From: Acidimicrobiia bacterium
GTDB lineage: Bacteria; Actinomycetota; Acidimicrobiia; Spongiisociales; ZC4RG35
Assembly (NCBI GenBank): GCA_965203555.1
Contig: CBDBCY010000004.1
Coordinates: 1,440,001-1,504,000, forward strand
DNA length: 64,000 nt
Direction of reading: 5' to 3'
Numbering within the stretch: position 1 is the first letter of the stretch; every line of letters begins with the position of its first letter. Below, one piece after another: positions 1,120-53,739 of the stretch. The notes beneath the pieces were generated by a model. It saw only the letters and a program-made list of their open reading frames with translations, searched no databases and was not told the origin of the DNA. The position numbers and the translations under genes are program-made.

Positions 1120-1908
1120 TCAGCGCAGGCCTGCGGGATAGTCACCGGGAGCGTCGGCTTGCCGGGAGGCTTGCGCGCCGGCGCGGATCAACAGCAGGGC
1201 CACCGTGGGCGTACCGGTCAGGGCCCCGCCGTGCCACACCCCCGCCGGTCTGTAGAAATACCCCTCTCTGTTAAGCTCCGCGACCTCCGGCCCGTTCTTG
1301 AGTTGGGAGGCCTGCCGCCACGTCCCCTCCAGGACGAACACCTCGGTGGGCTCATCATCCACGTACCAACGATCCAGGTGCAGATCGACCGCGGCGGTCT
1401 GCCAGAATAACCCACCCCGCAGCGACGGCCCCAATGGGCGTTGCCGGGAATTGGGCGGTGCCCCCGGCATCCGGGTCCACTCCCGCTCTCCCGCAGCCAC
1501 CGGCGCCGGTCGGTCGACCTCCTCGTCGCCCTCTCCCGGCACGAACCTGAGGGGGGCGCCGGAGAAAAGCAACACGGAAGCGCCTTTGCTGCTCCCCAAC
1601 CCGTTCACAATCGTTCCCCCCCGGGCGCCCCAGAGAGTGTGGGCGATCAAAATGCGGCCGTCAGCTTCTACCTCACCGGATAGAACGAACAGTTCCACAT
1701 CGCCGCTGAAGGAACCAGACCGCAACGTCCCCCAACCCGCAGGTAACTGCAGGAGCCGGGTGGAGGGCCCCGAACCATCGCGGCTCAGGATCCAGGTGGC
1801 CGGCCGGCCCTCCAGGCCGTAGATGGTCATTGGCCGGGACGGGAAATCCCGAGGGTTGGGAAGGGTAAGGGGTTGGAAGCGCCGATCGGCTACGCCGGGA
1901 TCATCCAC
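1120..1908 (-). CDS. Bicupin-fold protein (DUF4437/ChrR-cupin-like)
   Basis: Two cupin-like motifs, ELFVLSGEV and EVFVLEG...YFYRPAGVWHG. Start uncertain (GTG 1908 or ATG 1830). Confidence 0.6.
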   Translation of the reverse strand: MDDPGVADRRFQPLTLPNPRDFPSRPMTIYGLEGRPATWILSRDGSGPSTRLLQLPAGWGTLRSGSFSGDVELFVLSGEVEADGRILIAHTLWGARGGTIVNGLGSSKGASVLLFSGAPLRFVPGEGDEEVDRPAPVAAGEREWTRMPGAPPNSRQRPLGPSLRGGLFWQTAAVDLHLDRWYVDDEPTEVFVLEGTWRQASQLKNGPEVAELNREGYFYRPAGVWHGGALTGTPTVALLLIRAGAQASRQADAPGDYPAGLR

Positions 1909-1924
1909 CTTCCTGGAGTTGCCT

Positions 1925-2794
1925 CTATGAGAAGTCGAACAGTCGCATGGCGTTCCCACCCCGGATGGCGTCACGGTCTGCCGCTGACAGATCGGGCAGG
2001 TAGTTGTCCACCAACGCCAACTGTTCGGGATAGCCGGGTTCCACCGCGATCCATGGGTAGTCCGAGGCCCACATCATCCGGTCGGCGCCGAACATCCCGT
2101 ACACGGCGTCCACCGTCGACTGCAGGTCGGGATGGGGATAAGGTTCGTGGGTAAAGGCGTACTGTCCGGACAGATGTACGTACACGTTGGGGCGGGCGGC
2201 GATCACCTCTATGGTCGGCAGGGATTTGGGCGGAAGCGCCAGGCTGAACCGGGGACGGCCCCACTCGTCGGCTCTGATCTCATCCCAGATGCTGGGGCAG
2301 AACCCCAGGTGGTTGATGACCACGGTCAGATCGGGAATGTGATCCAGCACCCGATCCAGCAGCAATACCTGTTCTTCAGTCGCATAGAACCACAGCTTCA
2401 CCCCGTCGGCGGCCATCTGCTCCAGGACGGGAAACATCTCGATCCGGTCGGCAGGTTGAGTGGGATCGGGATCGAGGTTGAACAGTCGGAAACCCTGGAA
2501 GGGCGTGGCCCGGCGGCGTTCCCGGTAATTGGCGAGTTGATCTTCGGCAGTTACATCCTGCACTCCCACGATGGCGAACAGGTCCGGCCTGGTGGCCACC
2601 ACGTCCCGCACGTACTCATCGTGATGGGAGATCGACACGATAACCGCCTTGTCCACTCCCGCCCGCTCCATGTAACCGAAGTACTCGTCCATCGGCGCCC
2701 GACGCTCCGGCGGCGTCAAACCCGGAAACACATCGCGAGGAAATTGCTCGGAAATCGACTCGAACAGATGGAGGTGGGCATCGACCACCGTCAT
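1925..2794 (-). CDS. Amidohydrolase_2 family protein (lactonase/decarboxylase-like)
   Basis: N-terminal VDAHLH, VINHLG, PNVYVHLSG and RMMWASDYP motifs. Confidence 0.85.
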   Translation of the reverse strand: MTVVDAHLHLFESISEQFPRDVFPGLTPPERRAPMDEYFGYMERAGVDKAVIVSISHHDEYVRDVVATRPDLFAIVGVQDVTAEDQLANYRERRRATPFQGFRLFNLDPDPTQPADRIEMFPVLEQMAADGVKLWFYATEEQVLLLDRVLDHIPDLTVVINHLGFCPSIWDEIRADEWGRPRFSLALPPKSLPTIEVIAARPNVYVHLSGQYAFTHEPYPHPDLQSTVDAVYGMFGADRMMWASDYPWIAVEPGYPEQLALVDNYLPDLSAADRDAIRGGNAMRLFDFS

Positions 2795-3048
2795 GGGAGC
2801 TCCTTTCAAAGACCGTTAGAGATATCGTAACCTCACGCCACCACCGTCAGGCAGGTGGCATCGGGAGCCATGTGGAATACCACCGACACCCGCCTTCGTG
2901 GATTCGGCTGTTGCCCTGTTGTTGGCCCTTGTCTTCCTCTTGTCATTGGCCATCTGGGGACCAGTGGGCGAAACCCCGTCCTATGAATAAAATGCGTCCG
3001 ACCATAAACCTGCCACAAGAAACGTGCTGCTTATCGTAAGCTGAGATC

Positions 3049-3369
3049 ATGTTGCTTTCTACCACTTCTGAAGTTCCAGGACACACCGTCACCGGCTACA
3101 AGGGTGTAGTCATATCACAGGTCACTGCGGGTCGCCACCTCGGGAAAGATGTCCTGGCAGGCGTTCGGGACGTGTTCGGCGGCCGGAGCAAATCTCTGGA
3201 GAAAGACCTGGAGGCGGCCCGCCAGGAGGCTCTCTCGGAGTTGGCGGCCAAGGCGCAGAGGATGGGCGCCAACGCGGTGGTCGGCATCCGGCTCGACATG
3301 GAGAATGTGGGAGGATCGATGCTGCTCTTCGTCGGCCAGGGCACTGCGGTGACGGCCGTCCCCAACTAG
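3049..3369 (+). CDS. YbjQ/UPF0145 family protein
   Basis: 106 aa with DVFGGRS, ARQEALSEL and GANAVVGIRLD, typical of YbjQ. Confidence 0.9.
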   Translation: MLLSTTSEVPGHTVTGYKGVVISQVTAGRHLGKDVLAGVRDVFGGRSKSLEKDLEAARQEALSELAAKAQRMGANAVVGIRLDMENVGGSMLLFVGQGTAVTAVPN

Positions 3370-3430
3370 GGTCCCTTCCCACCGCCTGATTCTCCCGGGC
3401 CGTTCTCATCCACAGGGCGGGTACGCGCTA

Positions 3431-3787
3431 TCAACGGCGGAGCCGAGGCACGCAGTAGAACAGGGCGATCAGCGGAACCACCGAGAAAATCAAAGGCAGC
3501 CACCAGTCACCCCTGGTGACCCCCGCCCGGATCGCCAGGGAGATGAACGCGTCCGACGCCACACTGAGCAGCAGCAGCGCCACGGTGACCCTCACCAGTA
3601 GCCGGGACGCCTCGGCGCCGAACGCCAGAACCAGCAGTGCCACCGCCGCCGCCGGATGGACACCCACCAGGTTCAGCCGCTCCCACCACTGCCCCCCGTC
3701 CGCAAAGCTGCCCACCATAGCCGCCAGGACAACCAGCAGAGTATGCACCACCACCAGCACCCGCACGTACCCGGGAAACCTGCTCAT
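3431..3787 (-). CDS. Small hypothetical membrane protein (about 4 TM helices)
   Basis: Four hydrophobic segments; ATG at 3787. Confidence 0.6.
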   Translation of the reverse strand: MSRFPGYVRVLVVVHTLLVVLAAMVGSFADGGQWWERLNLVGVHPAAAVALLVLAFGAEASRLLVRVTVALLLLSVASDAFISLAIRAGVTRGDWWLPLIFSVVPLIALFYCVPRLRR

Positions 3788-3879
3788 AAACCCAGGGTAC
3801 ATCCCACAATCGATGCAAGCGATCCGCATCTGCTATCTGAGGCCAATCCCGTTCGACCGACCAGCTTCCCGGTGGCAAC

Positions 3880-3901
3880 TGTCACACCCTCTCCCTACCG
3901 T
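3880..3901 (+). promoter_or_regulatory. TGTCAC-N10-TAnnnT promoter motif (PafBC/WYL-activator type)
   Basis: TGTCAC accctctccc TACCGT; same geometry as the motifs at 43702-43723 and 43853-43874. Confidence 0.45.
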
Positions 3902-3979
3902 CCCAGAGAAACACATCAGGAGCAATCCTGGGAACGATACTGACCGTTGTACCACCTCCACACCTCGGAGGAAGTGCAG

Positions 3980-4323
3980 ATGTCGATGGTGGAAGATCAC
4001 TCCACCGCCCGGCGCGGATGGATGATCCCCCGCGCCGAGCAGTTCTTCCCGAGCGATCATCTGCGTACCGAACCGCTGAGGGCAACCCGCAGGACCGCCC
4101 TGGACCTGATGGACCAGGCGCGGGCAGTCCTCGACTCCCTGATGCTGGTTGCCATCTTCCTCATGTCGTTGACCCCGCCGGAGTACGGGAAGCCAAAACG
4201 TCACCACCCAAGCCTATGGGAAAATGGTTGGTGGAGACCCTGCCGGGCAAGATCGACCTTGAGACTCCCAGCCGTCGGGAACCCCCAAGAGAGATACCCT
4301 TTCTGATCCGCGCCGACGAATGA
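3980..4323 (+). pseudogene. Possible degenerate DinB-like gene fragment
   Basis: ATG after GGAGG; helical segment ending LMSLTPPEYGKPKRHHP, with apparent continuation in another frame (KWLVETL). The family call is weak. Confidence 0.25.
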
Positions 4324-5050: not shown

Positions 5051-5161
5051 GTGGCGAGGGCAGAGTCTTCGTTCAGCTTGCTGTTCGACGAGAGTCTCCC
5101 GTGGAAGGTGGCTGCTGAAAGGGTGATGATCATGGATCCGTCGCGTCAGGATACCGCTTAG
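5051..5161 (+). pseudogene. Truncated PIN-like toxin (VapC45/DUF5615 type), 36 aa
   Basis: MARAESSFSLLFDESLPWKVAA is the PIN N-terminal strand with catalytic Asp, directly after the DUF433 gene; stops at TAG 5159-5161. Confidence 0.65.
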
Positions 5162-43723: not shown

Positions 43724-43852
43724 CCCCGTGGTTGCCACCATGCGATTGGATGAACCGGGGAACCTGTCTCAATACCCTTACCGATTTGAGATCCTCTCGG
43801 TTGGCCTTCTCTTAGTGTTTGTTTTAACAACTTAGTATTATACGGTGTTGTT

Positions 43853-43874
43853 TGTCACACCCATGGTGCATACT
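43853..43874 (+). promoter_or_regulatory. TGTCAC-N10-CATACT promoter motif of the HNH gene
   Basis: TGTCAC acccatggtg CATACT, 7 nt before ATG 43882 (leaderless geometry). Confidence 0.5.
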
Positions 43875-43881
43875 GGTATGT

Positions 43882-45093
43882 ATGAACAGAAAAGATGTGA
43901 ACGGAACATCGGTGGTCAACCGGGTGCGTCTGTTGGCACCCACTCTGCCGGTTTCTCAGGCTTCGTCTGAGCAGTTGCGACAGCGGTTGAAGTCGACGGT
44001 CCGCGTTCAGAACCAGGCGGCGGCGATCCGCGCCGAGGTCCTGTCCGAGTTGCGCCGACGCAAAGGCGCCGAGGTGGTGGAAACCGTTTTGCAAAAGGAC
44101 GGTCTGCTGCCCCGACGGAAGGCCCGGTCAGAGGTGGAAACCGCCAAAGAATTGGAGGAACTGCCCAAGACGCGGGAGGGTTTCCAAAAGGGAGAGATCT
44201 CTGCTGACAACGCCCGGATCATCGCCGGCGCCAACCAGCGGGGAGAGATCGACGAAAATGAACTGTTGGACGGTGCCCGTTCCCAGTCTCCTGACAAGTT
44301 CGCGGCCACGGTCCGCAAACACGAACAAAAGCGTGCTCAGGATGATGGTGTTTCGAAGTTGGAGCATCAGCGGTCGCGGCGGTTCGCCAGGATCAAGACC
44401 GACCTTGAGGACGGGATGACCGTGCTGTACGGGCGGTTCGATCCGGTGACGGGTGCTCGGGTCGAGACTGCAGTGTCACGGATGATGAAACAACTGTGGC
44501 ATGAGGAAGACCCCCGGAACCGGGCCACTTCGGGTCAACGGATGGCCGACGCCCTGGCCGAACTTGTCACCCGTCAGGGAAAAGACGGCCGGTCCCAGGA
44601 TGTGCGGATGTTGCTGATCGCCGACTACCACGCGGTCAGCAAGGAACTTGGAAACCCCCGCCTGTCCGATGGAACCCCCATTCCCGCCCGGACGTTGCGG
44701 CATCTGGCCTGTGATGCTCAGATCCTGCCCGCCGTGTTCGCGGGGTCTTCGATACCCCTGGATTTGGGAAGGGCCCGCCGCAAGGCCAGCGGAACCCAAC
44801 GCGCTGCTCTCATTGCCCGCGACAAGCACTGTGTGGGCTGCGGCGCCAAAGCCTCCTGGTGTCAGGCGCATCACATCGTCCACTGGGCCGACGGAGGACC
44901 CACCGATCTGGACAACATGTGTCTTTTGTGCAGCAGATGCCACCACAAAGTACACGACAACGGCTGGACAGTACACCAGTCCCCACAGGGAAGATACTCC
45001 CTCCGCCGCCCACCGAACAGCCTCGGCCGCCCACCCCGCCGCCAGGCATCTCACCGGTACCGGCGCAGGCGAACTGTCCGACAACGCAAATGA
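43882..45093 (+). CDS. DUF222 + HNH endonuclease (13E12-repeat family)
   Basis: QRMADAL, LACDA, LDLGR, RDKHCVGC, CQAHHIVHWADGGPTDLDN and LLCSRCHHKVH motifs. Confidence 0.92.
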   Translation: MNRKDVNGTSVVNRVRLLAPTLPVSQASSEQLRQRLKSTVRVQNQAAAIRAEVLSELRRRKGAEVVETVLQKDGLLPRRKARSEVETAKELEELPKTREGFQKGEISADNARIIAGANQRGEIDENELLDGARSQSPDKFAATVRKHEQKRAQDDGVSKLEHQRSRRFARIKTDLEDGMTVLYGRFDPVTGARVETAVSRMMKQLWHEEDPRNRATSGQRMADALAELVTRQGKDGRSQDVRMLLIADYHAVSKELGNPRLSDGTPIPARTLRHLACDAQILPAVFAGSSIPLDLGRARRKASGTQRAALIARDKHCVGCGAKASWCQAHHIVHWADGGPTDLDNMCLLCSRCHHKVHDNGWTVHQSPQGRYSLRRPPNSLGRPPRRQASHRYRRRRTVRQRK

Positions 45094-45266
45094 ACCCATC
45101 CGAACCCCTGCTTCTCGACAACTAACCCGCGAAAACGACCGACACACTCTTAACCCGTTGCGCCCCTTGCCCACCCCAAAGTTCTCTTCGCGAACCCGCT
45201 GGAACGCAGGAAATAGTCAGCGCTATTACCACCATCCCAGCCAAACGGGGGGTAGTGTGAAAGCAA

Positions 45267-46340
45267 TCTTGTGATTGATGTGAGCAGTCCGAGTCGGGTT
45301 GCTCGCTGAATACCATAGCCCGCCAACAGGTCGGGGAGTAGCTACCGCCGACCTTGGGTGAATAGGCGAGGCCATCTGTGTCCTCACGTCAATCACAGGA
45401 ACAACCCGATGACGTGAGGACAACCATGAAAGCGTGTGGAGGAACCCTACGAGGTTCTCGTCCAGGTAGGCACCCGCCCGACCTACTACCACAAGCGGGT
45501 GGCTTACACCGTGACCATCCCATACACGCCAAGTTGCCCACACCGTGGAGACACAGTCCCAGGTGTGTCGATGACCCGAGGCCGATAGCCCGAACCGAAG
45601 GATGGGGAGGCCCGAGCAAATCAGGCCTCCCCATCAATCTTCAGTCGAGTGATAGCTGGAGGCGAGGGCAGTCACGGGGGCCGCTGGGCGGAGCCCGGAC
45701 TCCAAATCCGAGCCTGGCGGGTTCGATTCCCGCTCCCCGTGCCATAGATGAGAGAGAAGCACTTCGCCGCCGAGCCCATCGAAGCGTATGGCGACGAAGT
45801 GGCTTTGGGCGAGCGGACGGTGTTCGGTTGGGAGATTCCCGCCCAGGAGACAAGGCGCGACTCTATGTGGAGTTGATGGCGATCAGAGTCGGATGGTCTA
45901 TGCCGGCTGTGCGGCAAGAAGGCCGGGTTAGACCTACCTCCTCCCAGGCCGAAGCGCGAGTCTGGCCGCCCAAACAGTGTGAACGGGGCGGGTGCGGGAC
46001 GTTGGCTTACCACTCGGCAGGTGCGCTGGTGTTCACGTCTGTGCTGGGCGCTGGGCAACGGGAAGATGCCGTGGATGTGGCAGATGCTTCACGATTCGGC
46101 AGGAGGGGCGTGTGGAGCCTGCGGGATCGAGAGGTTCGTGCCCCAGCGGACCAAGCCCTTCGTGGTCCGTAACCGACCGGTCCTCGGACCGAATGACTGG
46201 CCCAAAAGCGAAACGCCAAGGAGGACGCCAAGAGCCTTCAGCAACAGTGGAGGGCAGAACCCCGAGTCCGGAAGCCCCGGCATGACGAGAGGAGGTCGCT
46301 ATGAGCGGCAACGATGATCAAGCAGTAAAGCTGCGGAAAA
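45267..46340 (+). ncRNA. Candidate large, highly structured non-coding RNA (about 1.07 kb) containing a tRNA-like domain
   Basis: No credible protein ORF; many nested long-range helices with G-U pairs (see findings); a TAGTGT -10-like hexamer at 45253-45258. Boundaries approximate. Confidence 0.65.
45674..45744 (+). tRNA. tRNA-Trp(CCA)-like gene with a shortened, non-canonical D-arm
   Basis: Acceptor stem ACGGGGG/TCCCCGT, discriminator G, encoded CCA; anticodon arm CGGA-ctCCAaa-TCCG; T-arm GCGGG-TTCGATT-CCCGC. Confidence 0.8.
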
Positions 46341-46364
46341 CACGAGTTTTGAAAGGATCGAGAC

Positions 46365-47592
46365 ATGGGAGCCTGTAAGCGAATTATCATCGCCGCTGTT
46401 GCCTTTCTGTGGCTTTTCGGCGTCATGGCCGGGTTCGTAACCCGCCCGACGCCAGCCGTAGCGGCAGGGTGTACCAAGACGACCAACACGCAAGGTCTCG
46501 ATGTGTGGAACTTCGCCGGGAACACTCGCGGAGGCTGGGCGGGGAAACCCGGTGGGGCGAGCAACTACGCCAAGACGCTTTGTGAGCAGGCAGCGGAAAA
46601 GCATGCCGCCACTACAACTACCGTGCCCGGCACGACCACGACCACGACCACTCTACCTCAGGACGATAATGATGCCGTCACGAGTGGGAGAACTGGGGGC
46701 GTGAACACCAATTCGGTTAAAACCACCACGGGTGGGACGACAGGTGTGAATGAGAACAGCCACAACCAGGCCTCGGCTTTGCCGAAGGCTTGGATTGAGG
46801 CCGCAGGGTTCATCCAGAAGCGCGGCCAAACCTTCGCGAAGTTTCTCGTAAAGGTGTCGCCCGCCAACACCAATCGCATCTACGTGAGGTATAAGGTGAC
46901 TCAGTCCGGGGGGCCCGTTGCCAAACGGGCATATCTTACCTACCGTGGCTCCTCTAACTACGCTGAGGTCGATAACGGTCAAGGGCCTATTGAAGTAGGT
47001 GTCCTGGAAGAGGTCGCCACTGAAGGCAGGATCTGGGCCCAGATCCTGCCGGCCGATGAGACGGGTGGCATCTCGTACACCCTGGCGAAGACATCCAGTA
47101 GGCCCGACAAGGTCTCCATCCGTGTGGCCGCCACCGTAACTGACGATGAGTGCGCCGAGGGCAAGGAGGATATCGACGAATATGACCTACCAGATGTGAC
47201 GGTCGGGAAGCGCACAATCAGCCCTGGGACAATCGAGGTGGACCGGTGCAAGGACGTCACCGGGAATATCGCGGCGAACGCGGCGAGCAAAATAGTGGCG
47301 AAACTTCTTCAACACTTGCCTACCGATGACTCTGAGTGCCTACACGCGTCGTGCTTTCGCCAGATCCGACACTATGAGGCGGTATACGCTTGCTTCGAGG
47401 CAAGGGTTGCGGATGCGATCGAGCATACGATCAACGTGGTTCTTGTGAATGCCCCAGGTGAGATCGAGTGGTCCGATTGTGTTATCCCGGAGGACCCCGC
47501 CTGGCCGATAATTAGCGTCGCAAAGGAAGGTAATGTCGATATCGGCGCCGATGAGATCGTCTTCAAGTTCCCAATCCAACCGGATACTTGGA
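46365..47592 (+). pseudogene. 5' part of a large secreted Calx-beta-type repeat protein, interrupted by IS21
   Basis: Signal peptide (KRIIIAAVAFLWLF...AVAA), Thr-rich linker; joins in frame to 49884 once the IS is removed. Confidence 0.8.
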
Positions 47593-47657
47593 TGATGACG
47601 ATCATCGAAAGTACCCAGAGTCGATCAGCGAAAGTTCCCACCCTGGGTTGGGTGGTT

Positions 47658-48443
47658 TTAGGCTAGCAGGTCTCCTTTCGGTCGGTGTTTTCGGGCTTGG
47701 GCTTGGTAGCTTCTCAGGCGGTAGCTGTCGCCGGTGATGGTGAACACCACGCTTTTGTGGAGCAGCCGGTCGAGCATGGCGGCGGCGATGGTGTGGTCGG
47801 AGAAGATCTCTCCCCACGACGCGACACCGAGGTTGGTGGTGAGAATGATCGATCCTTTTCCGTACCGTCTGGAGATGACTTGGAACAGGGTGGCGGCGTC
47901 TTCTGCCGGCATGGGCAGATAGCCCAGTTCGTCGATGATCAACACTTTGGGGGTGTTGAAGAACCGCAACGTTTGGGCCCATCGTCCTTGTAGGGCGGCT
48001 TTGCGGCACCGCGCCGCCAGGTCCGCAGCGGTGGTGTAGTACACCTTGTGACCGGTGTCTACCGCGGCGCGGCCGAGGATGACCGCCAGCATGGTTTTGC
48101 CCACGCCGGGCGGTCCGATGAACAAAACGTTGGAGGCATCGGCCAGGTAGGCCCCGGTAACCAGCTCTCTTACCAGTTTCTCGTCGACGCTGGGTTGGGC
48201 GGTGAAGTCGAAGTCTTCCAGTTGCCATCTGGTGGGGAAGTTCGCCAGTTTGAGACGGGTTTCCCATCGCCGTTGTTCGGTGGTCTCGACTTCTACTCGA
48301 AGTAGACCTTCAAGGAACTCGGTGTGGCTTTCACGGTTGGTTCGTGCCTGTTCGAGGTGGGTGGGGAGCGCCTCGGCGGCGGCGGGTAGGTTGAGGTAGG
48401 CCAGATGGCCTCGCAGCTGTTGGTACACCGATTGGTTCATCAC
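47658..48443 (-). CDS. istB: IS21 helper AAA+ ATPase
   Basis: GPPGVGKT, LIIDELGY, ILTTN, LDRLLH and GDSYRL motifs. Confidence 0.95.
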   Translation of the reverse strand: MMNQSVYQQLRGHLAYLNLPAAAEALPTHLEQARTNRESHTEFLEGLLRVEVETTEQRRWETRLKLANFPTRWQLEDFDFTAQPSVDEKLVRELVTGAYLADASNVLFIGPPGVGKTMLAVILGRAAVDTGHKVYYTTAADLAARCRKAALQGRWAQTLRFFNTPKVLIIDELGYLPMPAEDAATLFQVISRRYGKGSIILTTNLGVASWGEIFSDHTIAAAMLDRLLHKSVVFTITGDSYRLRSYQAQARKHRPKGDLLA

Positions 48444-49738
48444 AGCCCCGCTTTTCGGTTTTGTTGGTCGATGTGCCGCTGGTACACCTCCAGATCGATC
48501 ACCGTTTCGGTGTACAGGTCTCCGATACCGGCGGCGATAGCCAAAGCCGCGTCTGATGGCGGACGGTTGGGTTTGGGTTTGCAGGGTGGTTTGGTGGTGA
48601 ACTCGGCTAGGACCACGTTCTCCAAAGCGGCGGTGTGTTCGGGTAGCCGAACCACCCGTCCCATACCGCGGGGTGCCTGCTGGTGGGTGGCGACCAGCCG
48701 GCCACTGGCCGAGAACATGCTGATAGTGGGGTCACCGAGCCTCCATCGGACGGTGACCTGGGTTCCTATCACCCCTGGTGGCACCGAGTATCGGTTACCG
48801 CGTACCGATACCAGCCCGTTGGATGTCACCCTGCGCTCCAAAGTCCCTTCTGCCGGGTAAGCCACCAGGGGCAGCTCGAGGAGAGGCTCGGTCTTGGCCA
48901 GCTCACCCACCGTGCTCTCACCCCGTGGGCGAAGATCGCCCACGGTCTGGCAGAATCTGTCCAGACTGTGCTGTGCTTCGGCGATGCTGGTCACCGCTGC
49001 GGTGCGCCACCACCGCTGAGAGACATAGTGGATGGCCTTTTCCACCACGCCTTTCCGTTGAGGACGGCGCGGTGGGCACGGGTCAACAACCACCCCATAA
49101 TGTTTGGCTACCCCAACGAACGACGGCTGGATACGACCGGTGGCGGCGACCACGGTCGCCATCCGATCCACCCTCCACCGCCGCGGGGTACCCTCCAGTC
49201 GTCTCAACACCTGGTCAAGACCCTCCACCAAATGGGGTTGGTCCTGGCGGGACGTGATCCACGCCCGAAAAGCGCCCGAGTGCGACAGCACACCCACCAG
49301 CACATGAGCGGTGGCTCCCCACGGCGTGTCACGTAACTCCACCCAGTCCCACTGGCACTCCTCACCCGGTGGATGATCGATGATCGCCGTGGCCCGGCCC
49401 CTGGTACCCGCACAGGCGCCACACAACGGCCGCAGGCCCCGAAGACGGACCTTCCGCACGAACGTCGGGTAGCTCTGCTCATAGCCCAAAGCCACCACCT
49501 CGTCGAACAACGCCGACCCCCACACATGCGGATCATCAGACAACCGCTGCCGCACATACGCCTCGAACTCATCAAACAGATCCGCCCCCGCCCGGGCACG
49601 CTGACCGGGCACCCGATCGCCCGACAGATACGCTCGCACGGTACGGCGGCTCTTACCAACATGACGGGCGATAGCCGAGATCGACCACCCCCGCCTCCTC
49701 AAAGCATGAACTTCCACGCACTCCTCCAGTACCAACAT
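48440..49738 (-). CDS. istA: IS21 DDE transposase
   Basis: GWSISAIAR HTH, QWDW, VDRM, RKGVVE and NRYSVP motifs. Confidence 0.95.
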   Translation of the reverse strand: MLVLEECVEVHALRRRGWSISAIARHVGKSRRTVRAYLSGDRVPGQRARAGADLFDEFEAYVRQRLSDDPHVWGSALFDEVVALGYEQSYPTFVRKVRLRGLRPLCGACAGTRGRATAIIDHPPGEECQWDWVELRDTPWGATAHVLVGVLSHSGAFRAWITSRQDQPHLVEGLDQVLRRLEGTPRRWRVDRMATVVAATGRIQPSFVGVAKHYGVVVDPCPPRRPQRKGVVEKAIHYVSQRWWRTAAVTSIAEAQHSLDRFCQTVGDLRPRGESTVGELAKTEPLLELPLVAYPAEGTLERRVTSNGLVSVRGNRYSVPPGVIGTQVTVRWRLGDPTISMFSASGRLVATHQQAPRGMGRVVRLPEHTAALENVVLAEFTTKPPCKPKPNRPPSDAALAIAAGIGDLYTETVIDLEVYQRHIDQQNRKAGL

Positions 49739-51277
49739 AAAGGGCAGGGCTCCTCTCCACAGCTAGGAAATGTGACAATCCCTTAGCTTGGAGAGAGCCC
49801 TACCCAACAACGGGCATTTACCCCCAGGAGGTGGGAACTTTCAGTGATCGAGACTGGGAACTTTCAGTGATCGCCAACATGGAGGTACGAAGGCTCCCTT
49901 TTCGACCTGGATAATGCCCCAAAGTTGCGTGTCTCTATCGTTCAATTCGGCAATGTACTGACGAAGGATGCCCCCACTACCGCACCAATAGCCGCTAGTG
50001 AGGGCAAGCTGAAATTGGGTATACACCCTAACCGCTCTGGGTGGGTAGACCTCCAACTTCATCCCGGGTCCTGGTATAGCCGGACGGATCCCTACTCAGC
50101 CAGAATACAAATCAATGACAACAGGCCGGCGGCCTCCGTCAGCGCCAACTCTCCCGATCCTGGTAAGGATGTCGTCTTCACGGTGACCATGGATACCTCG
50201 GGCAATTTCGACGTGGTTCTGAAGATTGAGCAGGAGGGGGGTGTCCTCTCCCGGACCGTCACTGAAAGGACGGTGTATGTAACAAACGGCACTGGGTCCA
50301 TCAACCTTGGCACCAAGGCCAAGACTGCTGGAACCGTGACCGCCAAGATCCGGGATGATGATTGGAACCCCTTTCGGGTCGCCACCAGGTCGGCTACAGC
50401 GGCGGTCGGTAGCCTCCCAGAGCTTTTTGTCTACAAATACCAAACAGGCACTGTGACTGAAGGCCAAACCGCCTACTTTGTCATTGCTTCCAAAGACTGG
50501 ACTCCGGTCCCGTGGGATGTGACGGCGAAATTCTTCCGGGTGCAATACGGGTCGTTCGCCAACTGGAGTGGTAAGGGACAGATCACCATCCCTGAGGGCT
50601 CGTCATACTCCAACTGGATCCGGGTCACCATTCAGAAGGACAACTGCAAGGAGTCCGATGGTTGGGTCGGCATCATCCTTGATAAGGACGACAAGTACGA
50701 ACTGGCCGAACCCTCCGCCGACAAAGTGGATGTGGTCGATAACGACGGGTCCTCGGCGGATTGCTCTAGCGTATCGACAACATCGCTTTCAACCAATTGG
50801 GCTGACACGGTGAGGATGGTTAGGACTACGGGTAGTGTGGGCGGAGGGACCACCACGACGACCACCACGACCACGACGACCACCACAACTACCACGACAC
50901 CCGTGACTACCTGCTCGTCTGGCCAGTCGAAGAAGAATGGCGTTTGTGGCTACCCGGTGCTGACTATTGAAAGGGTCTCATCGAGCGTTACCGAGGGTCA
51001 GAAGGCTGAGTTCCGCATTCGCTCGGACCGCGATCTTCCAAGGGGTACGAACGTAGGAGTACGCCCCTCGCCGAGCGGCAACTACGGTATTGGTACTGCG
51101 GTTACGTCCGTCAGGATTGACAACGGCCGGTCATGGACCTTCGGTTGGTACACCACTGATGACTCCACGGACGAGGCGAACGGTTCGGTCACCGCTACCC
51201 TGGGCTCTGGCCATGGTGATTACACGGTGGGGTCGCCTAGTTCAGCCACGGTAACGATAAGGGACAACGACGAGGCT

Positions 51278-51935
51278 CCGGTGTTGTCGGTTTCTCGGCA
51301 CTCGTCGAGTGTGACCGAGGGCGGCACTGCTTATTTCCGGGTGACCTCGGATAGGTCTGTGCCTTCCACTATTTCGGTGGGTTTTTCCCGGTCGCAGAGT
51401 GGGTCGTTCGCGAGTTGGAGCGGCAGCGGAACGGTCACCATTAGCAGCGGTAACACCCGGTCGGGGTGGATCAGCGTGAGCACTGTCAATGACAGCACAG
51501 ACGAACCGAACGGTTCGCTCACCCTCACTCTGAACAGCGGAACCGGTTACACGGTGGGGTCGCCGTCGTCTGCTTCGGTGACCGTCAACGACGACGATGT
51601 TGCGCCTTTGCCGGTGTTGACGGTTTCCCGGTATCAGTCGAGTGTGACCGAGGGCAGCACTGCCTATTTCCGGGTGACCTCGGATAGGTCTGTGCCTTCC
51701 ACTATTTCGGTGGGTTTTTCCCGGTCGCAGAGTGGGTCGTTCGCTAGTTGGAGCGGCAGCGGAACGGTCACCATTAGCAGCGGTAACACCCGGTCGGGGT
51801 GGATCAGCGTGAGCACTGTTGATGACAGCACGGACGAACCGAACGGTTCGCTCACCTTGACTCTGAACAGTGGTACCGGTTACACGATCGGGTCGCCGTC
51901 GTCTGCCTCCATCACCGTCAGGGACAATGATGAGG
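51278..51935 (+). repeat. Near-identical intragenic tandem duplication, 333-bp unit
   Basis: Units begin ccggtgttg at 51278 and 51611. Confidence 0.9.
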
Positions 51936-52333
51936 CGCCCGTCACCTGCTCGTCTGGTCAGGCTGAGAAGGATGGCGTCTGTGGCTACCCCGTGCTAACT
52001 GTCCATCAGGATGACCGATCCTCGGTTACCGAGGGTTCCTATGCCGATTTCAGGATTCGCTCTGATCGGCCGTTGCCGGGCACCCTAAAGGTGGAGGTTC
52101 TCCGGTCACAGCGTGGAGACTTCACCACCCAGACTGGTGTTACCTACTGGGAATTGGGAACGGGTAGTACCTCCGGAAGTGGGAGGATTTCGACCGTAAA
52201 TGACTCGACGGATGAGACGGATGGCAGTGTTACGGTCACGATCCGAACCCACTCTGGGTGGCGCTCTGAGTACAGGGTTGGAACACCCAACTCCGCTACG
52301 GTCACCGTCAGGGACAATGACGAGTCGGTGGTC

Positions 52334-53067
52334 ACCTGCTCGTCTGGTCAGTCGAAAAAGAATGGTGTCTGTGGTTACCCGGTGCTGACTATTCGGACTA
52401 GTTCGTCGGACATCACCGAGGGCCAGATAGCCTCCTTCCAGATCCATTCTGACCGTCGCGTTCCGAGGGTGGCCCCAGCCGCGTGGCGAATGGCAGGGGC
52501 GTGGACCGTGAGAAACTGGTCCACCACAATCTCCGGAGGCGATGGACCCTGGCGCATCCTTCGGTGGCGTACTCCCGATGACTCCACCGATGAGCCGGAT
52601 GGTTCGGTGGAGATATCCTTGCGGAGTGGCTCCGGCTACAGAATGGGGTCACCATCGTCCGCTACGGTGACAATCCGGGATAATGACGAACCTACCTGCT
52701 CGTCTGGTCAGTCGAAAAAGAATGGTGTCTGTGGTTACCCGGTGCTGACTATTCGGACTAGTTCGTCGGACATCACCGAGGGCCAGATAGCCTCCTTCCA
52801 GATCCATTCTGACCGTCGCGTTCCTGGATCCCTCAGGGTGGCCCTCAGCCGCGTGGCGAATGGCAACTATGGGGCGTGGACCGTGAGAAACTGGTCCACC
52901 ACAATCTCCGGAGGCGATGGACCCTGGCGCATCCTTCGGTGGCGTACTCCCGATGACTCCACCGATGAGCCGGATGGTTCGGTGGAGATATCCTTGCGGA
53001 GTGGCTCCGGCTACAGAATGGGGTCACCATCGTCCGCTACGGTGACAATCCGGGATAATGACGAACC
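52334..53067 (+). repeat. Near-identical intragenic tandem duplication, 360/375-bp units
   Basis: Units begin acctgctcgtctggtcagtcg at 52334 and 52694; the first is 15 nt shorter. Confidence 0.9.
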
Positions 53068-53739
53068 CGCCGTTGTTCCAGTGGTCAGCATCAGTGGTGG
53101 TAGGTCTGTCACTGAGGGAGGAAACGTGGTGTTTACCCTCACCGCTACTCCGAAGCCCACGAAGACGATATCGGTCAAGGTGCATATTGCGGACCCCTAC
53201 AACGATGATCCGGGAATAACCATTTTCCTCACCGATTACAGCGAAAGGACCGTGCGCATCGGCACCAGCGGTAGGGCCACACTCTCCCTTGCCACCGATG
53301 ATGACCAGACGGAGGAGTCGGACGATGATGTGGTGGCTACCATCAAGTCGGGGACCGGGTATCGCATTGGTACTGCCTCAGCCTCGGTTCGGGTGAGGGA
53401 CAATGATGCCCCGGCCACGCCACGTGCTCGGGTTGGTAGTTATGGCAGTGTCGCCGCGGGAAATAGGTTGGGTGCCTGGGTTGGGTTCTACAATGTGGAT
53501 AACCCTCCGACCAGGGTGCGGGTCAAGATAGAACGGCCAGGGTACACCACCGTATACAGGTGGATAACCACGAGCAGCGACTCGAATGGCTGGAAGTTCG
53601 GTCGTATCTCGGAAACCACCTGGAAGGCGGGGTGGGCCAAAATCACGGTTGTGTCGGGAACCGGATACACCTTTGGGGCGACCGTCTCAATCCGAATCTA
53701 TCCCCGAAATTGATGGTGGGTAGCCGATCCCCAATCAAC

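Follow-up and report, generated by a model that had tools for sequence, protein, structure and literature searches.

Between a DUF222-HNH gene and a gene for a secreted protein, the 64-kb stretch of Acidimicrobiia DNA analysed here (the window) contains an intergenic region rich in inverted repeats. A first-pass annotation, made from the sequence alone, read 45267-46340 as a single ornate non-coding RNA of about 1.07 kb with an embedded tRNA, located in a phage-derived island. Our analysis finds that these 1.07 kb are a mosaic, and that conserved RNA structure is limited to a 5′ leader of about 160 nt at 45265-45427 on the + strand. The leader is followed by a probable gene remnant with a terminator-like hairpin, a tRNA-like element, an unconstrained spacer and the leader of the next gene.

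The leader was modelled with a covariance model containing helices P1-P4, built from a hand-given structure, to which 44 copies out of 45 loci were aligned. An earlier RNAalifold consensus, based on a MAFFT alignment, lacked P1, the arms of which had been misaligned by MAFFT. The window copy contains the following features.

45253-45258, + strand: −10-like hexamer TAGTGT, read from the sequence, which would place the transcription start at about 45264-45266
45267-45284, + strand: 5′ strand of P1, pairing with 45383-45400 over 18 bp including two G-U pairs
45293-45301, + strand: 5′ strand of Pa, GUCGGGUUG, pairing with 45402-45410 and crossing P1
45302-45307, + strand: 5′ strand of P2, CUCGCU, pairing with 45365-45370
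45308-45317, + strand: internal-loop strand GAAUAC..., facing GAAUA at 45360-45364, with near-invariant unpaired letters in the 44-copy consensus
45318-45321/45356-45359, + strand: P3, enclosing the optional P4
45328-45354, + strand: optional P4 hairpin with the loop AGUAGCUA
45360-45370, + strand: internal-loop strand GAAUA and 3′ strand of P2, GGCGAG, from the 44-copy consensus
45383-45400, + strand: 3′ strand of P1, from the repeat search and covariation
45402-45410, + strand: 3′ strand of Pa, CAACCCGAU, complementary to GUCGGGUUG and located just 3′ of P1
45379-45391/45410-45422, + strand: alternative hairpin of 13 perfect bp, which uses the 3′ strand of P1 and buries the Shine-Dalgarno sequence GAGGA at 45416-45420

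An AUG at 45426-45428 follows the Shine-Dalgarno sequence after five nucleotides. In the aligned copies the core keeps the order GUCGGGUUG, P2, GAAUA/GAAUA internal loop, P3 and optional P4. The sequence of P1 varies between copies while its pairing is kept, and its length ranges from 14 to 24 bp. The loop of P4 has a palindromic AGCU core; several copies carry a short hairpin in place of P4. The 3′ strands of P1 and Pa are separated by only 1-2 nt, and because Pa crosses P1, the two form either a strained pseudoknot or alternative helices.

The structure is backed by compensatory changes, as expected of a riboswitch-like leader. Standard pairs occupy 88.5% of the cells in the 44-copy alignment, compared with 36-43% when the partners are slid by 1-3 columns, and the covariation score is 0.585 compared with 0.08-0.10 for the slid partners. 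Changes on both sides occur in 28 of 30 pairs, and none of 500 shuffles reaches the observed values. In P1, 90.1% of the cells are paired and all 14 modelled pairs show double changes. The corresponding values are 94.5% and 4 of 6 pairs for P2, and 88.6% and 5 of 5 for P3; P4 is paired in 73.5% of the cells. For Pa the figure is 94.5%, compared with 27-45% when slid, with a U-G/U-A/C-G exchange at three positions. P1 was also assessed independently of any alignment. Strands taken from the same copy pair with a median energy of -25.5 kcal/mol, compared with -10.6 for strands of different copies, and in 32 of 43 copies none of the 43 candidate partners pairs better than a strand's own.

G-U cells outnumber A-C cells by 153 to 28 across the 44 copies, and by 76 to 9 within P1. 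Because of this excess, the helices are taken as selected in RNA of the + strand and not as DNA. The + strand had already been favoured by the first-pass annotation on the same grounds, and both G-U pairs of the 18-bp helix agree with it. A coding explanation of the motif was considered and dropped because of the compensatory changes and the presence of P4 in some copies only.

All 12 helices quoted for the 1.07-kb region are present at or beside their positions, and the repeat search recovers both the 18-nt arms 45267-45284/45383-45400 and the hairpin 45601-45635. It also finds arms with 80% complementarity at 45804-45818/45960-45974, as well as the perfect 13-bp hairpin 45379-45391/45410-45422 (100% complementary), which had not been listed before. 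Comparison with dinucleotide shuffles separates the two ends of the region. The segment 45262-45650 folds with z = -6.37, and 0 of 100 shuffles are as stable. For 45745-46340, where the proposed multibranch domain and every later stem are located, z is -0.69 and 26 of 100 shuffles reach its stability. In sliding 160-nt windows on the + strand, z stays between -1.2 and +1.0 throughout from 45741 on.

No Rfam 15 family reaches its gathering score in the whole 64-kb window. At E ≤ 10, the interval 44800-46800 gives only chance-level matches and a sub-threshold tRNA-Sec match over the tRNA-like element. The large RNAs GOLLD, ROOL, HEARO and OLE, as well as group I and group II introns, have no match at or near the gathering score. 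The suggested kinship with GOLLD or ROOL therefore does not hold: no family is matched, the conserved part spans only ~100-160 nt where such RNAs have a large conserved multi-domain structure (400-800 nt), and the element is the 5′ leader of a gene. Searches over the 160-nt motif itself return no gathering-level row in 16 loci and none over the motif coordinates at E ≤ 10, also in 16 loci. The leader is a structured RNA family not in Rfam 15. The idea of an undescribed structured RNA is correct for these ~160 nt but not for the 1.07 kb. No description of the motif was found in the full-text literature, a search that did not cover subscription papers and the supplementary motif lists of RNA-discovery studies; passages of the preprint 10.64898/2026.09.22.753630 are unrelated to it.

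A 1265-nt intergenic query finds four further places in the window's own genome. At 1005211-1005487 of contig C4 lies an 87% copy of 45211-45483, referred to below as the paralogous locus, and contig C1 holds two copies of 45293-45373; the fourth place is a second tRNA-like element, described below. A truncated copy of the motif on C1 (55400-55579) has an intact 5′ half and a diverged 3′ half; an IS1-family transposase gene separates it from a full copy 1.8 kb away. Among 40 relatives, the only conserved part of the query is 45277-45378 (query positions 178-279), which is the motif core. Within the first 300 nt of the query, every match that reaches 49 nt falls on this interval; the other matches to the query are three short ones of 28, 35 and 53 nt.

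The motif is present in 11 of the 17 genomes of the window's genus. It occurs in 7 of 151 genomes sampled from the family, all seven belonging to this genus, and in none of the 37 other genera; a sample of the class gives 0 of 150 other genomes from 81 other genera. A cross-lineage pattern scan (one genome per species here, sampled genomes elsewhere) lists at least 114 loci. At least 23 of these are confirmed by the covariance model and, judged by record title, fall into five phyla. The titles describe metagenome-assembled genomes of Acidimicrobiia, Gamma- and Alphaproteobacteria, Acidobacteria, Terriglobia, Vicinamibacteraceae, Thermoanaerobaculia, Nitrospirales and Rhodothermales. Dispersed copies number 6, 3, 2, 1 and 2 in five such genomes. 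Of 101 genomes sampled from the order around G174, one of the motif-bearing genomes, 20 carry the motif, three of them in 26, 10 and 10 copies.

A pattern scan of metagenomes yields four contigs, three of which contain the motif. A similarity search of phage and plasmid collections gives no match; the viral contigs comprise three from a pattern scan, none matched by the model, and a second viral pattern scan is empty. One of the 23 confirmed records is titled Candidatus Spongiihabitans, the name of a sponge symbiont, and runs labelled as sponge metagenomes contain contigs of a close relative of the window stretch. This one title and these runs are the whole basis on which the motif is possibly linked to a habitat; two further runs with small shares, X6 (coral label) and X7 (marine label), do not enter into it.

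In several genomes the motif lies inside a repeated transposon module. One is a 2419-bp repeat consisting of an IS1595 transposase gene, the motif and a family-25 glycosyltransferase (GT25) gene, present in about 26 identical or near-identical copies in a 2.6-Mb genome (G329, contig C1, loci L194-L196, at 1580-3998 of the locus). A second repeat, in genome G332, combines the motif with a lipoprotein gene and an IS1595 transposase; the lipoprotein has a weak TbpB-like match of 22.6 bits, below the Pfam cut-off of 26. Genomes G332 and G378 each hold 10 copies of related modules with a TbpB-like lipoprotein gene. Overall, of 60 motif loci, 8 have an IS1595 transposase in their fetched flanks, two of them gammaproteobacterial; none was found in the fetched flanks of the other 52, nor in those of the window-genome loci. 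In one gammaproteobacterial locus (L080), two tRNA genes at 3374-3472 and 5072-5144 flank the motif-plus-cargo module, and one of them ends ~80 nt upstream of the motif's promoter. This position hints at an insertion beside a tRNA gene. The family probably moves between phyla, in part as a passenger module of IS1595; this is one component of the overall explanation given below and shares its confidence.

The genes downstream of the motif appear to be mostly envelope or surface genes, as judged from their sequences. Their Pfam matches comprise CsgG, outer-membrane beta-barrel proteins (in two lineages), DUF732, Bor lipoprotein and the TbpB-like lipoprotein, and also glycosyltransferases of families GT25, GT8 and GT2 and a weak matrixin match. 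A simple count of hydropathy gives the downstream protein a hydrophobic N-terminus at 22 of 44 loci, and most of the other cargo genes are unnamed. Relationships among the cargo proteins are limited to two pairs of orthologs and a single weak match between lineages (36% identity, E = 4e-7).

The position of the motif relative to these genes is that of a 5′ untranslated region, located between promoter and start codon on the strand of the gene, as in leaders generally. TANNNT hexamers occur 36 times in the 44 copies within the 10-18 nt before the first P1 pair, with a peak of 13 at -13, compared with a background of about 0.4 per position further upstream. Several copies also contain a TTGACA-type -35 element. 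Because the hexamers pile up just before P1, the RNA is predicted to begin at P1. This and the G-U bias support the start near 45265 on the + strand that the first-pass annotation had proposed. A scan of the window locus for E. coli-type promoters finds none, and gives one terminator-like site at chance level. On the 3′ side, most copies have a Shine-Dalgarno sequence and a start codon within tens of nucleotides of the element.

Two kinds of competing pairing can be recognised. In the window copy, the single-sequence minimum free energy (MFE) structure takes up the 13-bp hairpin. Pairing between the 3′ strand of P1 and the downstream or Shine-Dalgarno region beats shuffles (z < -2, a crude test) in 9 of 43 copies, and the Shine-Dalgarno sequence is covered in those of the nine that were inspected. 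In two copies of one locus (L108), a U-to-C change in the mimic accompanies an A-to-G change in the 3′ strand of P1. In non-actinobacterial copies, Pa is followed at a distance of 2-10 nt by a GCCGGG-like sequence that mimics its 5′ strand, so that the 3′ strand of Pa could form a local hairpin instead. No U-tract terminator was seen in the hairpin after Pa in the copies examined for an expression platform.

The near-invariant unpaired letters of the core suggest a binding pocket, and we predict that the leader would work as a switch. In the first fold, P1 would form with or without Pa and leave the ribosome-binding site free. In the second, the 3′ strand of P1 would pair with the downstream mimic and hide the ribosome-binding site; in other phyla it would be the 3′ strand of Pa that pairs with its mimic. 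A putative ligand or factor bound to the conserved core would set the balance between the folds, and the outcome would be control of the translation of the downstream gene. Switching, ligand and translational effect are all predicted from sequence comparison; the structure, strand, position and distribution of the leader and the mosaic make-up of the region are demonstrated by the analyses. The best explanation, in which we have moderate confidence, is that the family is a mobile, riboswitch-like cis-regulatory leader that precedes envelope or surface genes and moves between phyla partly on IS1595, and that the window carries one copy of it in a mosaic locus.

A number of observations weigh against this explanation. 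Since the covariance model itself fitted the 44 copies to the structure, their alignment is biased towards pairing, and the alignment-free control of P1 was added for this reason. Support for Pa comes mainly from conserved letters, with 4 double-change cells. Pairing that sequesters the Shine-Dalgarno sequence is significant in just 9 of 43 copies and the hairpin after Pa has no U tract, so the expression platform is not uniform. The P1 stems of typical riboswitches are far shorter than the 14-24 bp found here. Among the cargo genes there is no common pathway or transporter that would indicate a ligand, and some are not envelope genes at all: three related loci have a short-chain dehydrogenase, and a DNA methylase and a ResIII helicase occur as well. 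In the window itself, the frame that begins at AUG 45426 looks non-coding and the gene remnant lies in another frame, for which reason the window copy may be vestigial; the homology that identifies the remnant is short, covering 36 residues.

The features that follow the leader in the window are listed below.

45436-45588, + strand: 50-codon frame that corresponds, by homology, to the 3′ end of a secreted-protein gene, as its remnant or mini-version
45601-45635, + strand: terminator-like hairpin of 12 perfect bp without a U tract, from the repeat search and MFE folding
45672-45744, + strand: non-canonical tRNA-Trp-like element, reported by ARAGORN as tRNA-Trp(cca) at 45674-45744
45745-46172, no strand assigned: unconstrained spacer that includes the proposed multibranch domain, with chance-level folding and absent from the paralogous locus
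46173-46364, + strand: leader of the gene for the secreted protein (46365-47666), with homology to the leader that precedes the paralogous gene

The 50-codon frame is 44% identical to residues 744-779, in the C-terminal repeats, of the 804-aa protein encoded at the paralogous locus (E = 7.3e-4 genome-wide, 2.6e-6 against the two proteins), and has no Pfam or PHROG match. The paralogous gene is followed, ~35 nt after its stop codon, by a similar G-rich 12-bp hairpin. Because of the C-terminal homology and this matching hairpin, 45436-45635 is best read as the 3′ remnant of a gene, or a mini-gene, with its terminator. The earlier statement that the region has no credible open reading frame is accurate for the 264-codon frame 45378-46172, which has no Pfam match and runs through the tRNA-like element, but not for this short frame. 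The frames 45979-46317, 45992-46285, 45672-46058 (- strand), 46033-46311 (- strand) and 46238-46564 (- strand) match no Pfam family above threshold. A blastx search of 45100-46400 against the genome's open frames of at least 80 aa returns only self-matches and the paralogous motif region, and a blastn search of 45430-46364 against phages only a 49-nt tRNA match.

The paralogous cargo gene (C4, 1005774-1008188) encodes an 804-aa secreted protein with long, low-complexity Ser/Gly/Asp-Pro runs and C-terminal 'PYTV.V' repeats, and without a Pfam family. The 433-aa protein encoded in the window at 46365-47666 shares only the signal-peptide region with it. Between the two loci, the intervals from 45420 to ~45530 and 46173-46404 are homologous, while 45531-46172 (~640 nt) replaces ~135 nt of the paralogous locus.

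The tRNA-like element lies within this ~640-nt stretch and is thus not a domain embedded in a conserved RNA. Its acceptor stem measures 7 bp and its D stem 4 bp; the D loop has 3 nt, the anticodon loop, which presents CCA, has 7 nt, and the variable region has 2 nt. The T arm is canonical and the 3′ CCA is encoded. The tRNA-like domain of the first-pass annotation is borne out by ARAGORN, but it stays below the Rfam gathering score for tRNA (RF00005); its best match within the clan is tRNA-Sec, at 36.2 bits compared with a threshold of 47. A normal tRNA-Trp is present elsewhere in the genome. A second tRNA-like element, 82% similar, is found at 2564250-2564316 of contig C4, 9 nt after the stop codon of another gene, and was missed by ARAGORN. 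No such element was found in the 16 other genomes of the genus. Both copies are located just 3′ of a gene or gene remnant, and may be 3′ processing or stabilising elements.

A contig from a related strain (run X4) allows the parts of the region to be compared at short distance. Five differences are listed for 45289-45450, and of the three within modelled pairs two keep the pair. For 45451-45758 one difference is among those listed, so that 45450-45758 is nearly invariant between the two strains. The interval 45759-46270 has at least ~35 substitutions and indels of 16, 2 and 1 nt; among the listed substitutions in the stems proposed there, 4 of 5 break pairs and none is compensated. The 3′ 600 nt have no homolog in the 40 relatives except one 53-nt match. 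A history in keeping with these comparisons would be that the gene originally controlled by the leader shrank to the 50-codon remnant and its terminator hairpin, now followed by the tRNA-like 3′ element, the unconstrained spacer and the next secreted-protein gene.

The wider neighbourhood does not have the appearance of a phage-derived island, and no phage structural genes were seen in it. The genes upstream are rho, DUF1385, prfA, prmC and sua5, and those downstream an IS21-type istA/istB pair, a Calx-beta protein and an AMP-binding enzyme. The DUF222-HNH gene (43852-45093, + strand) has more than 25 paralogs with ~77-84% nucleotide identity on contigs C1, C2 and C4, and the homology among them ends at or before 45067. 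The IS21-type pair follows the secreted-protein gene directly on the - strand, with the istB/DnaC-like ATPase at 47658-48443 and the istA-like transposase at 48440-49738. The Calx-beta protein (1262 aa, 49925-53713) is encoded beyond it.

Of the other explanations for the conserved leader, the one that retains most weight is a cis-acting leader with a role other than sensing a small molecule. Its partner would be a protein or a small RNA, or it would act mainly as a 5′ stabiliser or RNase III-type processing site, the long 5′-terminal P1 protecting or marking the mRNA. The unusual length of P1, its place at the very 5′ end and a functionally diverse cargo that shares no pathway fit such a role, and the palindromic AGCU in the optional P4 loop could serve an RNA-RNA or dimer contact. 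However, many unpaired letters are near-invariant across five phyla, the mutually exclusive helices at the ribosome-binding site suit a switch, and a protein partner would have to be conserved or co-transferred, while none is seen beside the motif. We regard this explanation as unlikely, though it is the one we would take most seriously after the switch.

A self-cleaving ribozyme, or the 5′ part of a processed trans-acting small RNA, spread by mobile elements, is improbable. Known small ribozymes have been spread by mobile elements, and the motif is likewise multi-copy, patchy and transposon-borne, with a compact conserved core that is pseudoknotted; in the window, a strong hairpin ~370 nt from the start marks the end of the element with its remnant. 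On the other hand, most copies hold a fixed place between promoter and Shine-Dalgarno sequence or start codon, no Rfam ribozyme family matches and no cleavage-site signature was recognised.

It is more doubtful still that the element acts at the level of DNA, with the P1 arms as inverted repeats of a miniature transposon, a recombination site or an invertible phase-variation segment. Inverted repeats of 14-24 bp do flank ~100 bp, in many copies, with IS elements nearby and cargo typical of phase-variable surface genes. Yet the bias of 76 G-U to 9 A-C cells in P1 is explained only by selection on + strand RNA, the short inner helices P2-P4 covary too, and the P1 arms differ among copies, which transposon ends would not. 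Most of the 44 copies have hexamers before P1 and a start codon after it, and none is reversed, although reversed copies were not searched for separately.

Least credible of all is one large ornate RNA over the whole of 45267-46340, GOLLD/ROOL-like or new, with an embedded tRNA-like domain: the listed helices and the tRNA-like element exist, no full-length gene is convincing and 45450-45758 is nearly invariant between two strains, but no large-RNA family of Rfam matches, 45745-46340 folds like shuffles, neither the paralogous locus nor the 40 relatives contain a counterpart of 45531-46172, the related strain has stem-breaking substitutions and indels in the 3′ part, and 45436-45635 is accounted for as gene remnant and terminator. 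The region, in which 600 of 1074 nt fold no better than chance, shows that dense helices in GC-rich intergenic DNA do not by themselves indicate a large RNA.

A more far-reaching form of the riboswitch-like explanation is speculative, and we consider it rather unlikely. The leader would be a new riboswitch class that senses a signal of a shared habitat, from host or community, and switches on surface-remodelling genes (lipoproteins, porin-like proteins, lipopolysaccharide glycosyltransferases), exchanged across at least five phyla as a sensor-plus-cargo module, partly on IS1595. If the riboswitch-like explanation itself holds, a covarying regulatory RNA family new to the curated catalogue, with the cell surface as its cargo, would follow mobile elements, and possibly habitat, instead of phylogeny. 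RNA biologists would have an orphan switch to pair with its ligand, and symbiosis research would gain a handle on co-regulated surface structures in unrelated symbionts. Within these searches, it would also be a rare case of a regulatory leader inside a transposon passenger module.

Several known systems resemble parts of the locus. The window's tRNA-like element shares the 7-bp acceptor stem, T arm, CCA anticodon and 3′ CCA of a canonical tRNA-Trp, but differs in its 3-nt D loop and 2-nt variable region and stays below the Rfam tRNA threshold. As with GOLLD and ROOL (which we take to be RF01998 and RF03087), the region is non-coding, structured and close to tRNA-like sequence and mobile genes; in contrast to them, the conserved unit is 160 nt long and a gene leader, and the other 900 nt are neither conserved nor structured beyond chance. 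Transposons of the IS1595 family can carry passenger genes. The motif and its cargo likewise lie beside an IS1595 transposase in a repeat of up to 26 copies, although the motif is located outside the transposase gene and the repeat ends, as far as these were examined.

A close parallel is c-di-GMP-I (GEMM), a pseudoknotted translational riboswitch class that precedes very diverse envelope, pilus and other genes. Unlike GEMM, the leader matches no Rfam riboswitch, has a P1 of 14-24 bp, is patchy among phyla and transposon-borne, and has no transporter or biosynthetic gene beside it that would point to the signal. Like GEMM, it is a 5′ untranslated element that extends from promoter to Shine-Dalgarno sequence, with covarying helices and near-invariant unpaired core letters. 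Both also have dispersed copies and a heterogeneous, surface-rich cargo, and competing helices at the ribosome-binding site, as in GEMM, are predicted for the leader.

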